Source: a virus
Taxonomy: Duplodnaviria > Heunggongvirae > Uroviricota > Caudoviricetes
Reading direction: 5' to 3' (one strand)
Length of the DNA: 4,562 nucleotides
IMG/VR virus record: IMGVR_UViG_2913177423_000003
Span: 1 to 4,562 of that record
A program made the position numbers and the translations under genes. This document shows, piece by piece, positions 1 through 4,562 of this stretch. The notes beneath the pieces were generated by a model, which ran no database searches, was not told the origin of the DNA, and saw nothing but the letters and a program-made list of their open reading frames with translations. Within the stretch, counting starts at the first letter, position 1, and every line of letters starts with the position of its first letter.

Positions 1-114
1 AAAGATCCCCCTGTTGAGCACAACTAACACCTGGAGCGCACGCCAGACTTTCAACGGTGGGATCACCGGGACGCTGACGGGGAACGCCGACACCGCGACG
101 AAATTAAAAACAGC
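1..114. repeat. Left inverted repeat (IR-L); coding, specifies the conserved junction peptide of the fibre
   Basis: Hand alignment with the reverse complement of 4449-4562: mismatches only at positions 22, 23, 37, 58 and 91. Identity decays after about position 114. The outer 21 bp are identical. Confidence 0.9.
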
Positions 115-2020
115 ACGGAAGATTAATAACGTGCTGTTTGACGGTTCTAAAGATATTTCGCTGACGCCTGCGAACCTTGACGTCACCAGCCTGACGTTTA
201 TGAAAAACAACGGCGAAATGCCGCTTGATGCCGACCTGAACACATTTGGTCCCGTTAAGGATTATGTGGGTGTCTGGTATAAATCCACATCCTCCAACGC
301 AACACTGGAGAAACATTTCCCGGAAGACGGTGCCGTAGGTGTTCTTGAGGTATTCAATGGCGGTAATTTTGCAGGAATGCAGCGTTACACCACCAGGACT
401 GGCAATGTTTATATGCGCAACCTTTCTGGTTCCTGGAATGGCTCTGACGGCCCGTGGAGTTACTGGCGACAGATTCAGTCAGCAACACGCTCTCTGAGTA
501 CAACCATTGACCTGAATACGCTCGGAGGCGCAGAGCATCTTGGTTTATGGCGAAACAGTAGCGGCTCTATCGCTTCATTTGACCGCAACTATCCGGAAGA
601 AGGGAGTTATGGTCAGGGACTCCTTGAAGTTCTTGAAGGTGGTGGGTACTCACGCACGCAACGCTACACGACCCGCCGAGGGAATGTATATGTTCGATGT
701 CTTTCTGCTACATGGAATGCAGAGAATCCACAGTGGGAACCGTGGTCAAGAGTGGGCCATCAGTCAGAGTGTCGTTATTACGAAGGGGATTTGAATGTTC
801 TAACCGACCCCGGCATTTACAGCGTTACAGGGAAGGCAACAAACGGTCCAATGCAGGATACCGCTGGAGCAACACTGCTTGGGATACTGGAAGTAATCAG
901 ACGTTTTGATGGTGTGTCTGTTTGGCAGCGTTACACAACCACAGGGAAAGCAGAAACCACACAGGGGCGTACTTTTGAGCGCGTCTACGCCGGGAGCAAA
1001 TGGACCGAATGGCGAGAAGTATATAACTCCTTTTCGTTGCCCCTGAATCTGGGTATTGGCGGCGCAGTGGCAAAACTCACCAGTCTGGACTGGCAGACCT
1101 ACGATTTTGTGCCGGGCAGTCTGATAACCGTTCGGCTTGATAACATGACCAACATTCCCGACGGTATGGACTGGGGCGTCATTGATGGCAACCTGATAAA
1201 CATCGCAGTTGGTCCGAGTGATGATTCCGGTACGGGGCGCTCAATGAAGGTATGGCGCAGCACTGTAAGTAAAGCGAACTACCGTTTCTTCATGGTGCGC
1301 ATCTCAGGAAATCCGGGAAGCCGAACGATCACGACAAGACGAGTGCCGATAATTGACGAAGCCCAGACATGGGCAGCGAAGCAAACCTTCAGTGCTGGCC
1401 TTTCTGGTGAGCTGTCCGGCAATGCTGCTACAGCTACAAAGCTGAAAACCGCGCGAAACATTAATGGTGTCAAATTTGATGGTTCCAGCGATATAAATAT
1501 TAATACGCTGGTATCCCGGAATCGCGTCACTGCATTAAGCGGGAATGCAAAGGGGACGCCTGGTATCCAGATGTATGAGGCATATAACAATGGCTACCCT
1601 TACGCCTATGGCAATGTGCTTCATCTTACGGGTGTGTCCGCAGTTGGAGAAGGTGAGTTACTTATCGGCTGGAGCGGCACCAGTGGGGGATACGCGCCAG
1701 CATATATCCGTTCAAGGCGAGATACAGATGATGCTCAGTGGTCTGGATGGGCGCAAATTTATACAACAGCTCATAAACCCTCGGCAGGTGATATTGGCGC
1801 TTATACCGCCGCAGAATGTAATTCGCGTTTTATTACAGGTATTCGCTTAGGTGGTTTGTCATCCCTTCCAACGTGGAATGGTACTGGCTGGCATGACAGG
1901 TCAGGGCATGTTCTTACTGGTGTTGTCAATAGTAATACTGATGAATTAATTGATATCGCGCAGGCAAGACCTGTTCAGTATTGTATTAATGGCACATGGT
2001 ATAACGCGGGAAGTATTTAA
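2..2020 (+). CDS. Tail-fibre protein, variable C-terminal portion (alternative A); 5'-partial, continues upstream of the window
   Basis: The 668-aa ORF from the track stays open in frame to position 2 (aag atc ccc ctg before the TTG at 14), with no Shine-Dalgarno sequence before that TTG. It contains the tail-fibre repeat motif [17 protein letters not shown] twice (about aa 23 and 469) and three tandem units of about 90 aa with the core LEV-(13-14 aa)-QRYTT--GN-Y-R. Stop TAA at 2018-2020. Confidence 0.85.
221..1024 (+). repeat. Three tandem, diverged units of about 90 codons inside fibre alternative A
   Basis: Protein units about aa 70-160, 161-250 and 251-337. LEV cores at aa 111, 204 and 292, each followed by QRYTT then G-Y-R and W--W. 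Confidence 0.7.
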
Positions 2021-2022
2021 TT

Positions 2023-2550
2023 ATGATGCATTTAAAAAACATTAAAGAAGGCAATCCCAAGACCATTGAACAATATGAGTTAACCAAACGATTTAATATT
2101 GTCTGGTTATGGTCAGATGATGACAAAAACTGGTATGAGGAACAGAAAAACTTTCAGGATGATACTTTAAAAATGGCCTACGACGAGAACGGTATTATTC
2201 GTTGTATTGAGAAAGATGTGTCAATGATCAATCCTGATGGCTTGAGTGTTGTTGAGTTACCGAATATAACCGCCAACCGTCGCGCGGATATTTCTGGTAA
2301 CTGGCTGTTCAAAGATGGCACTGTAATCAAACGGATTTATACCCAAGATGAACTACAACAACAGGCGGAGTTACAAAAAAACACCTTGCTTTCAGAAGCT
2401 GAATTAGTCATTCAGCCGCTGGAACGCGCTATTAAGCTAAATATGGCTACTGATGATGAACGCGCCCGGCTGGAAGCATGGGAACGCTACAGTGTTCTGG
2501 TGAGTCGAGTAGATACCGAAAACCCTGAATGGCCTGATAAACCAGAATAA
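2023..2550 (+). CDS. Tail-fibre assembly chaperone (Mu U / P2 G-like family, as recalled)
   Basis: 175 aa starting MMHLKNI, with a GGGAAG Shine-Dalgarno-like sequence 9 nt upstream. It starts 2 nt after the fibre stop. The C-terminus ...[29 protein letters not shown] is the characteristic tail of tail-fibre assembly proteins. Stop TAA at 2548-2550. Confidence 0.85.
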
Positions 2551-2557
2551 TAATTAT

Positions 2558-2573
2558 GGCCCGATGTTGGGCC
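2558..2573. terminator. Candidate stem-loop in the spacer between the convergent chaperone genes
   Basis: GGCCC-gatgtt-GGGCC (5-bp GC stem, 6-nt loop) lies 8 nt after the + strand chaperone stop. Only TT follows, so it is weak as an intrinsic terminator. Confidence 0.2.
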
Positions 2574-2669
2574 TTCGAATGGTGGTTCTGGGACCAATAT
2601 CGCTTGTGGATTAATACCTTGATGCACCGGAGGTAGCAGATATATCCAGTGCACCATATATTGAATGGT

Positions 2670-3272
2670 CTACGCCTCTGGCAGTTCAGGCCAGAGGACA
2701 TCCGGCGCGGTGCTGGTATCTGTTACCGTCACCGCGTCAATGTAATCCAACACGATGTTTAGTCGGGTGGATTCCGTTTGCGTCAGCTTCCGCCCTGCCT
2801 GTAATTTCAATTGAATTAGACTGATAGAAGCCATTGCAGCATCAATCAATGACTGGCGCTGTGCTTCTGCCGCTTCTACTGCGGCATTGTGTTGTGCCTC
2901 GGTGTCTGTCACCCATTTCTCACCATCCCATTTATCATATGGCGTTAACGGGGCGATGGTGGTTGTATTTTCAGGATAATCCCCCGGTGCTGTGATTTCT
3001 TTTGATTCTCCTGTTTCGGTGCTATAAACGATTTCACCGCGATGGTCTGGCACATACTCCCATGAATTTAAATCTGCCGAACGGCAGATAGCATAACCCG
3101 CCTTATGTGTGCTAGGAGCATCTAAACAGGAATTGGCCGGAATGCCAACACCAACAGCAAGATATTCAGTTGATGCAGATATATATTCTAATGTTTCGCT
3201 ATCATAGTTATGAACGATAATATTTCCTGCCTGTACGGCAATAAGTTCATTATTCAATATCGCGTTATCCAT
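2670..3272 (-). CDS. Tail-fibre assembly protein (lambda Tfa-like type)
   Basis: 200 aa. GIPANSCLDAPS and SWEYVPDHRGEIVYSTETG resemble lambda Tfa GLPANSTDIAPP and SWHLVEDHRGKTVYDVASG (recalled from memory). The C-terminus TDTSTAPDVLWPELPEA resembles Tfa VDTSTAPDIEWPAVP. The ATG at 3270-3272 overlaps the stop of the upstream fibre ORF (TAATG). Stop TAG at 2670-2672. Confidence 0.85.
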   Translation of the reverse strand: MDNAILNNELIAVQAGNIIVHNYDSETLEYISASTEYLAVGVGIPANSCLDAPSTHKAGYAICRSADLNSWEYVPDHRGEIVYSTETGESKEITAPGDYPENTTTIAPLTPYDKWDGEKWVTDTEAQHNAAVEAAEAQRQSLIDAAMASISLIQLKLQAGRKLTQTESTRLNIVLDYIDAVTVTDTSTAPDVLWPELPEA

Positions 3273-4561
3273 TATGCAGCTCTCACAATATAATTAAATG
3301 ATGTATTACGTGGTCGCATAGATATCCATACGCTATTAAAATTATCTTCTGCTGTTCTTTGTGTGCCTGTAACTGAGTTATCAGCCGAAGCTGGAACATA
3401 GTCACTGTTATCCCCGGCTTTAGCACCAGAAGGCATTCCGATTATTTGCGCTTTATCAGCGGAAGCAAATGCTATACCAACCTTGACAGAAGTAGCCACG
3501 TCAACCCCGTAATAATCCTGTAACGCTGTGCGAATAAGTGTTGCATCCTGATTACTGAGTAGTGATCGTCCACTGTCTACACCACGTCCATCATCCCAAC
3601 CACGGATAAACTCACCGCGTAAATCAGGTAATTTACCGGTAGTGTATACCTTGGCAAGCTGAGGGTATTTTTCCATATCAAAGGCAGCGCCATTGCATTT
3701 CAGCCAGCCTGTCGGAGGCGTGGCGGAAGGCCACGGCAAGGGGACGCCTACGGGAATGATTTCGATATTTGCGCTACCGTTAAATGATACGCCGCTGATT
3801 GCGCGAGCGGTTTGCAACTTTGTAGCCGTTGCTGCATTACCTGTCGTATTTTGATTTCCCGTAGTGTTAACGCCAGGCAAGTTAATATTTGCAGTCCCAT
3901 TGAATGACACGCCTCCTATAGTTCTTGCGGTTTGCAATTTTGTTGCAGACGCCGCATTTCCTGTAGTGTTCTGGTTTCCTGTTGTATTTACACCAGGAAT
4001 CGAATCTTTAGATGTATAAATTTGCGCCCATTCTGACCACTCGGCAGTCGTTACATCTCGTCGAGAACGGATATAACTTGGAGCATGTGCACCACTTGTG
4101 CCACTCCAGCCAATCAGGAGTTCCCCCTCTCCGACAGAGGTTGCACCTTTAAGATGAACAACGTTTCCGTATGTAGTGGGATAACCATTATTGCTAACTT
4201 CATACATCTGGATACCCGCTGATGCTCCCTGTGTGGCACCAGTTAAGGCGGTAACACGCCCGCGACCAACGAGAGTATTGATACTAATATTTTTGGTTCC
4301 ATCAAATGACACACCATTAATACTGCGCGCTGTTGCCAGTTTTGTCGCGGTTGCCGCATTACCAGTGGTGTTCTGGTTTCCTGCGGTGTTTACACCAGGG
4401 AGGTTGATGTTTGTAGAGCCATCAAATGCCACACCACCGATCGTGCGGGCTGTTTTTAATTTCGTCGCGGTATCGGCGTTCCCCGTCAGCGTCCCGGTGA
4501 TCCCGCCGTTGAAAGTCTGGCGTGCACTCCAGGTGTTAGCCGTGCTCAACAGGGGGATCTT
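3272..4561 (-). CDS. Tail-fibre protein, alternative variable C-terminal portion (alternative B); 5'-partial, continues beyond the window end
   Basis: The 425-aa ORF stays open in frame to 4561. It starts with the same junction peptide as alternative A, followed by four copies of the fibre repeat (about aa 23, 63, 198, 240). A collar-type receptor-binding motif follows: TGWLKCNGAAFDMEKYPQLAKVY...GKLPDLRGEFIRGWDDGRGVDSGR (about aa 268-345). Confidence 0.85.
   Translation of the reverse strand, partial: KIPLLSTANTWSARQTFNGGITGTLTGNADTATKLKTARTIGGVAFDGSTNINLPGVNTAGNQNTTGNAATATKLATARSINGVSFDGTKNISINTLVGRGRVTALTGATQGASAGIQMYEVSNNGYPTTYGNVVHLKGATSVGEGELLIGWSGTSGAHAPSYIRSRRDVTTAEWSEWAQIYTSKDSIPGVNTTGNQNTTGNAASATKLQTARTIGGVSFNGTANINLPGVNTTGNQNTTGNAATATKLQTARAISGVSFNGSANIEIIPVGVPLPWPSATPPTGWLKCNGAAFDMEKYPQLAKVYTTGKLPDLRGEFIRGWDDGRGVDSGRSLLSNQDATLIRTALQDYYGVDVATSVKVGIAFASADKAQIIGMPSGAKAGDNSDYVPASADNSVTGTQRTAEDNFNSVWISMRPRNTSFNYIVRAA
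3821..4402 (-). repeat. Tail-fibre repeat units with a recurring PGVNT(A/T)GNQNTTGNA linker inside fibre alternative B
   Basis: Three linker copies on the - strand at about 4343-4399, 3941-3997 and 3821-3877. Hand comparison of two copies gave about 80 percent nucleotide identity; the longest exact shared run seen was about 16 nt. Confidence 0.7.
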
Positions 4562-4562
4562 T
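4449..4562. repeat. Right inverted repeat (IR-R), partner of 1-114
   Basis: Same alignment as IR-L. Read on the - strand it encodes [39 protein letters not shown], against [39 protein letters not shown] at the left end. Confidence 0.9.

Follow-up and report, generated by a model that had tools for sequence, protein, structure and literature searches.

Organization of the window

The DNA studied here (hereafter, the window) is the 4,562-bp viral record IMGVR_UViG_2913177423_000003, which is the entire short-read contig RHJQ01000048.1 (assembly GCA_004211995.1), and this record stops at the window ends. It contains the 3' parts of two alternative tail-fibre genes, each with its own chaperone gene, which converge towards the middle of the window and are enclosed by inverted repeats (IRs). 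This anatomy had already been recognized, correctly, in an earlier reading made before any database search (the sequence-only reading). Taken together with the comparisons given below, the window very probably represents the interior of a P1-type invertible tail-fibre segment (C segment), most likely carried by a P1-like phage-plasmid of Escherichia or a close relative.

The left IR arm (1..114, + strand) matched the reverse complement of the right IR arm (4449..4562, − strand) at 109 of 114 positions (95.6%) while the best of 2000 shuffled sequences gave 44/114, which confirmed the terminal repeats of about 114 bp described in the sequence-only reading. Identity was 86% over 156 nucleotides (nt) and decayed further inward. 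The outermost 21 nt (1-21 and 4542-4562) were perfectly mirrored, with the first mismatch at 22/23, and they resemble the k-mer overlap that remains where a de Bruijn assembler breaks at a collapsed repeat. Since the window is a whole short-read contig, its ends are assembly break points inside the repeat and not the natural ends of a segment. Only the inner portion of the IR is within the contig, where it keeps the reading frame of the P1 fibre gene S (GAA AAG ATC CCC CTG TTG...); the perfect repeat probably continues about 35 nt outward to the core of the crossover site (cix), as it does in the related contig L012 described below.

Both fibre open reading frames (ORFs) remain open up to the window edges, in the frame that begins at base 2, and, as had been claimed, they share a near-identical junction peptide, KIPLLST(T/A)..., which is encoded by the IR. 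The sequence-only reading had also indicated that no Shine-Dalgarno sequence precedes the TTG taken as the start of each fibre gene. The absence is true, but it is trivial because just 13 nt are found upstream of each TTG and these TTGs are not initiation codons. Those at 14 and 4549 correspond to the second Leu of PLLST, a motif that P1 gpS has too. The search of the four proteins with hidden Markov models that had been proposed was carried out, and tail-fibre (PHROG), Collar and Caudo_TAP families were matched.

The longer fibre part (+ arm; 2..2020, + strand) is a promoterless and start-less tail-fibre 3' part of 672 codons plus stop. It matched PHROG tail-fibre families with E-values down to 1e-81, and no family was found for it in the Pfam search. 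A P2 H-like module of 1.2 kb is inserted in this arm at 177..1379 (+ strand), with 81–92% nt identity to the tail-fibre genes of P2-like phages and 72% amino acid (aa) identity to a P2-like H protein. The module contains three tandem repeats of about 90 aa (...LEV...QRYTT...NVY...W...W), whose repeat seeds are at 379, 658, and 925. It is followed, at 1380..2020 (+ strand), by a second junction motif, a P1-IR-like domain (...IRSRRD...WAQIYT) and a distal tip similar to Sv', the variable fibre part of P1. Positions 1411-1764 were 76% identical to the P1 IR region (L006, 2328-2681), and the last 105 aa of the tip were 72% identical to the C-terminus of P1 Sv'. Separated from the fibre part by a gap of 2 nt is the gene of a tail-fibre assembly chaperone of 175 aa (Tfa175; 2023..2550, + strand), which is of the P1 U / P2 G type (Pfam Caudo_TAP, 1.8e-35; phrog_136, 9.5e-76) and shares 75% identity with P1 U, 71% with a P2-like G protein and 57% with P1 U'.

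The alternative fibre part (− arm; 3272..4561, − strand), likewise promoterless and start-less, has 429 codons plus stop and is open to the window edge. Its layout comprises the junction peptide, four repeats of about 80–115 nt (GNAxTATKLxTARxIxGVxFxG...; repeats D1/D2 at 3765, 3885, 4287, and 4407), a P1-IR-like domain, a Phage Tail Collar domain (Pfam Collar, 3.2e-15) and the tip. The last 161 aa were 79% identical to the fibre of the P2-like prophage of E. coli D72 and 49% identical to StfE of e14. The stop codon of this arm overlaps the ATG (TAATG) of the second tail-fibre assembly chaperone gene (Tfa200; 2670..3272, − strand), whose 200-aa product belongs to the TfaE type (Pfam Caudo_TAP, 5.1e-31; phrog_105, 7e-94) and is 86% identical to e14 TfaE and 87.5% identical to the chaperone of the D72 prophage.

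On sequence grounds, the pair of tips is a new mosaic in which P2 H-like repeats, a P1 Sv'-like tip and a U-like chaperone alternate with P1-IR-like repeats, a collar tip like those of e14 and P2-like prophages, and a TfaE-like chaperone. It adds one more allele combination to the well-documented mosaic diversity of the P1-family C segments, which form a long-known system.

Relationship with the P1 C segment

In the annotation of the P1 record, cixL lies at 32215-32234 with the crossover at 32224/32225, the cin gene encoding the invertase ends at 32220 and contains the enhancer inside its 5' part (31678-31749), cixR is at 36471-36490, and the constant fibre part (Sc) lies beyond cixR. Positions 1-148 of the window aligned with P1 32255-32402 at 86% identity, and the last 115 nt aligned with the P1 inverted repeat at 96% (95.7% for the right IR arm). 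The first base of the window corresponds to a position 30 bp inside the P1 crossover, where P1 reads ...CCTAAACC TT GGTTTAAGAGAACTCGGTACCAGCGGTGA|AAAGATCCCCCTGTTGAGCAC... In agreement with this, the sequence TTATCCAATACCTTGGTTTAAGAGAA was found in plasmid pNCYU-26-73-5 30 bp upstream of the equivalent of the window start. At the protein level, residue 1 of both arms aligned to residue 465 of S in P1 (987 aa), pAVS0578-B (967 aa), and pCUVET17-1010.2 (1181 aa).

Both window ends matched P1-family records only, and neither e14 nor P2. Since the two ends align to P1 S from residue 465, and e14 and P2 share inner modules only, the system is of the P1 Cin/cix type. The assignment to the Gin/Cin/Pin/Min group made in the sequence-only reading was therefore right and can be narrowed to the P1 C segment (Cin, cixL/cixR, S/U, Sv'/U'), with which the window shares the design and the junction as well as the IR (86–96% identity), Tfa175 and the tip of the + arm.

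Some differences with P1 were also observed. The C segment of P1 has a size of 4.26 kb, compared with about 4.62 kb predicted here, and its IRs are perfect over about 0.6 kb, whereas in the window near-identity ends after about 117 nt. In the + arm the 1.2-kb P2 H-like insert splits the ancestral IR, and additional repeat units lengthen it in the − arm. Finally, the tip and the chaperone of the − arm are of the collar/TfaE type and not P1-like.

Relatives with sequenced flanks

A protein search with the − arm yielded a single full-coverage match, P0003 (81% identity), encoded on the 93,538-bp P1-like contig L012 (ENA ERZ1311710 NODE_155). The whole window is colinear with L012 from 12684 to 7988 in four blocks, corresponding to window positions 1-1807 (84% identity), 1967-2566 (74%), 2621-3298 (86%), and 3582-4562 (96%). 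In L012, the genes for DarA/LydB/holins are followed by that of a 186-aa protein with Resolvase and HTH_7 domains (98.4% identity to P1 Cin), then by a cix-type site and, after 30 bp, by the collar arm and the 200-aa chaperone. Facing this cassette are the 175-aa chaperone and the 1222-aa S gene, followed by R and gp16. Two inverted cix-type sites (..ACC TT GGTTTAAGAGAA) flank the L012 segment, 30 bp beyond each window-equivalent end, and the L012 IR of 164 nt starts 41 nt outside the window-equivalent end. The sequence-only reading had placed an invertase and the constant fibre part just outside the window. In L012 this holds, with a 186-aa Cin orthologue on one side and the constant part on the other; the flanks of the present copy are outside its record.

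The layout of L012 was also found in pAVS0578-B (L009) and pCUVET19-970.2 (L014). In P1 and pAVS0578-B, cin stops about 35 bp away from the position equivalent to the window end, and Sc is present in L004, L005, L009, L012, and L014. P1, L009, L012, and L014 each carry two inverted copies of the exact site WWACCTTGGTTTAAGAGAA.

Window and L012 thus have their two cassettes paired alike, with the collar arm and a 200-aa chaperone on one side and the long arm and a 175-aa chaperone opposite. They differ in the distal tip of the collar arm, which has diverged (proportion of nonsynonymous differences, pN, of 0.46 in the last 82 aligned codons), in Tfa175, which is just 73% identical to its counterpart, and in the spacer between the chaperone genes (58 nt in L012 vs. 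119 nt in the window). Purifying selection with respect to L012 was detected in all four window genes, with ratios of nonsynonymous to synonymous substitutions (dN/dS) of 0.24 for the + arm, 0.09 for Tfa175, 0.22 for Tfa200 (85% aa identity) and 0.06 for the proximal − arm. The arm with the lowest value is the one in the silent position in L012. Purifying selection that includes an L012-silent arm is what would be expected if both arms were periodically expressed.

No record covering at least 80% of the window was found among E. coli complete genomes, PLSDB and INPHARED. Of 875 E. coli matches to the − arm, 695 were on plasmids, and most of these matches were on plasmids of P1 size.

The orientation of the segment in database records was surveyed with chimeric junction queries in which each arm was joined either to Sc or to cin. 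For the − arm, 257 records corresponded to the Sc junction and 111 to the cin junction. However, the first 660 nt or so of this arm are P1-IR-like and present at both ends of P1-type segments, and for this reason these counts do not discriminate the orientation. For the + arm, nine records were Sc-fused and none was cin-adjacent. This says nothing on flipping, because those nine plasmids carry fixed fibres with a single copy of the junction.

Proposed inversion mechanism

The mechanism proposed here is drawn from P1 biology, as given in the annotation of the P1 record and in PMC6906374. The predicted segment would measure about 4.62 kb between crossover points, and the window would cover all of it except the outermost 30 bp or so of each side. 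A Cin-type serine invertase encoded just outside one end would bind the two cix sites and, with Fis bound to the enhancer within cin, would cut the central 2 bp and rotate the segment by 180 degrees. Inversion would put either arm behind the constant Sc part of about 454 codons, transcribed from the late promoter upstream of R-S, and expression would be limited to the Sc-joined arm and its downstream chaperone. The fibres produced would have about 1136 or 893 aa, and virions would carry one of two receptor specificities. At the joins of the contig, AAAGATCCCCCTGTTGAGCAC would be expected to be preceded by ...ACCTTGGTTTAAGAGAACTCGG(C/T)ACCAGCGG(C/T)GA. The source strain would probably harbor a P1-like phage-plasmid with two host-range options, which is relevant to transduction and to the spread of phage-plasmids.

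Evaluation of alternative explanations

Several observations weigh against a P1-type C segment at this locus. First of all, the cix sites, cin, the enhancer and Sc of this copy are predicted by homology, as the record ends at the window ends. The crossover site was taken as a sequence of about 26 bp with half-sites around AAACC-NN-GGTTT. A scan of the window for AAACCNNGGTTT with up to two mismatches gave one chance-level core match, with 2.1 expected, and no match to the half-site TTCTCTTAAACC was obtained in the window with the same tolerance. As the crossover sites placed by homology are 30 bp beyond each end and none is cix-like within the window, the claim of a complete switch made in the sequence-only reading was rejected, and the window is considered the interior of a segment. 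In addition, decay is common among relatives. An IS3 element occupies the place expected for cin in pNCYU-26-73-5 (L004), the IR is missing from L005, and in L007 both the recombinase and the chaperone are truncated. Each of these three records has a single copy of the exact cix-type site. Truncated cin genes or incomplete C segments have been reported in three P1-like plasmids (PMC6906374). Moreover, the nine PLSDB plasmids with a fibre like the + arm (P2 H-type; H185-H193, e.g., CP115328.1 and NZ_KP453775.1) are all Sc-fused and have a single junction copy.

The decayed or fixed switches of relatives are the basis for the best of the alternatives, namely that the window is a frozen relic which keeps the anatomy of the P1 C segment but no longer inverts, cin being truncated or absent or one cix site lost, so that only the Sc-joined arm would be made. 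We consider this possible but unlikely. Both IR arms are present and 95.6% identical, and the two fibre arms (672 and 429 codons) and both chaperone genes are uninterrupted, unlike in decayed relatives, where they are truncated. The dN/dS values of 0.06–0.24, which include that of the L012-silent arm, also argue against a relic. In addition, the contig broke symmetrically at both repeats, as if both copies, and possibly both orientations, were present in the reads, although this inference is weak; that the break reflects a live mixture of orientations in the sequenced culture is a speculation.

It is considerably less probable that the window belongs to another invertase system, whether the Pin system of the e14 P region, the Gin system of a Mu-like G segment, or an invertible H-G region of Pin/Hin type in a P2-like prophage. 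The inner modules are indeed closest to such elements. Positions 177-2550 are 82–88% identical to P2-like prophages, and the collar tip with Tfa200 is 84% identical at the nt level to e14 tfaE and to the P2-like prophage of E. coli D72, a prophage that encodes a 188-aa recombinase of its own. A vestige of a TfaP-type chaperone gene, described below, is also present in the window. However, the ends (1-176 and 4387-4562) match only P1-family S genes, aligned from base 1, while the D72, e14 and P2 loci have no match to them. The colinearity of the whole window with the 93.5-kb P1-like contig L012 and the predominance of plasmids among the E. coli matches to the − arm point in the same direction. 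Membership in the e14 Pin or P2-like H-G systems was rejected, given that e14 (L010), D72 (L008), and P2 (L011) match inner modules only (2595-3758; 177-1465; 1967-2527).

Finally, a chimeric or fold-back contig whose inverted ends were made by the assembler is hardly credible: the contig is short and stands alone, and its 21 perfectly mirrored end bases resemble a k-mer overlap, but the arms diverge after 21 nt and are just 95.6% identical over 114 nt, which rules out a fold-back copy; between them the sequence is unique and coding throughout; L012, an independent contig from another sample, shows the whole arrangement again, block after block, and the same design occurs in P1, pAVS0578-B, and pCUVET19-970.2; and an independent assembly of run SRR8068136 (L002, a 1891-bp contig) agrees at 100% identity with window 1217-3107, a stretch that spans the junction of the convergent chaperone genes. 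Invertible segments can be recognized by short-read contigs that stand alone and have mirrored ends, though such contigs end short of the recombination sites.

Comparison with other tail-fibre systems

The P region of e14 (PinE; stfP-tfaP / tfaE-stfE) resembles the window in Tfa200, in the collar tip and in the overlap between the 3' ends of a tfaP-type and a tfaE-like gene, and the invertible H-G region of D72 resembles it in Tfa200 and, with higher identity, in the collar tip. In contrast to the P1-type segment, neither of them matches the junction or the IR at the window ends, and their invertases are 78–83% identical to Cin. The window therefore carries a cassette taken from a system of this type, but is not itself part of one. 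The non-invertible H/G genes of P2 share with the window the region 177-1465 (81–92% nt identity to P2-like H genes) and the chaperone type of Tfa175, but P2 makes one fixed fibre only and lacks both an IR and a second cassette.

The Mu G segment (Gin/gix) and the p15B Min system work on the same principle, in which a serine invertase joins a constant Sc part to alternative Sv parts with their chaperones. The IRs of Mu have 34 bp, and p15B has six crossover sites. By these descriptions, the window is set apart from both, having one outer IR pair and no internal cix-like site. The P1 record notes the homology of the P1 tips and of U/U' to Mu, and that of some regions to p15B.

Spacer, vestigial chaperone gene and internal repeats

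The spacer between the convergent chaperone genes (2551-2669) has 119 bp, vs. 58 in L012 and 28 bp in P1. A terminator-like scan identified in it a GC-rich hairpin (GGCCC-GATGTT-GGGCC) at 2558..2573 with a poor T tract, which is possibly a weak transcription terminator. A scan of the window for sigma-70-like promoters found three sites, fewer than the 7.6 found in shuffled sequences; as such sites are rarer than in shuffles, there is no evidence for an internal promoter.

The vestigial 3' end of a third chaperone gene, of the TfaP type, was identified by tblastn at 2615..2695 (+ strand). It comprises the last 27 codons (YLDAPEVADISSAPYIEWSTPLAVQAR) and is 70% identical to the C-terminal 27 aa of two proteins, e14 TfaP and the second D72 prophage chaperone (E-values from 4e-8 to 1e-7). 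Nucleotide homology to e14 and D72 extends to window position 2595. The vestige and the TfaE-like gene overlap at their 3' ends, an arrangement shared with tfaP and tfaE of e14, and for this reason the collar cassette is considered to have been imported from an invertible segment of the type found in e14 and P2-like prophages. This scar indicates that whole tip-plus-chaperone cassettes move between the invertible segments of unrelated phages.

A motif of about 80 nt (GNAxTATKLxTARxIxGVxFxG) is present in six copies, two in the + arm (1-156 and 1380-1500) and four, inverted, in the − arm (3765-3844, 3885-3964, 4287-4366, and 4407-4486). In addition, an inner inverted repeat with 71% identity is formed by 1562-1765 and 4013-4216. 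The motif copies and the inner repeat are remnants or expansions of the P1-type 0.6-kb repeat and are likely points of exchange. It is doubtful, however, that the switch offers more than two states, with the motif copies acting as secondary exchange points, through homologous recombination or quasi-cix sites, and yielding chimeric fibres within the lineage.

In pNCYU-26-73-5 (CP042620.1), a hybrid fixed fibre was observed at 5210-7735, in which the equivalent of window 1-1485 (95% identity) is joined directly to the collar tip and Tfa200 (3841-2658). This hybrid illustrates exchange at the junction motif, because its breakpoint falls in the repeated motif. In the L005 record, the fibre gene has downstream of it an ORF with the annotation serine acetyltransferase.

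A third, N-terminally truncated fibre fragment was found within the C segment of pAVS0578-B (10064-10973) and pCUVET19-970.2 (10193-11126), preceded by a junction-like motif that is 84% identical to window 1393-1485. These plasmids have only two exact cix-type sites. The fragment may derive from a more complex, Min-like arrangement, or be left over from an earlier exchange of cassettes.

Exact-sequence lookup located both chaperone proteins on RHJQ01000048.1 only, save that the 175-aa one was also on the 1891-bp contig of SRR8068136. The latter assembly breaks at window positions 1217 and 3107. Neither position falls in an internal repeat of the window, which suggests that other near-identical fibre/chaperone sequences, e.g., of a P2-like or e14-like prophage, are present in the same genome.

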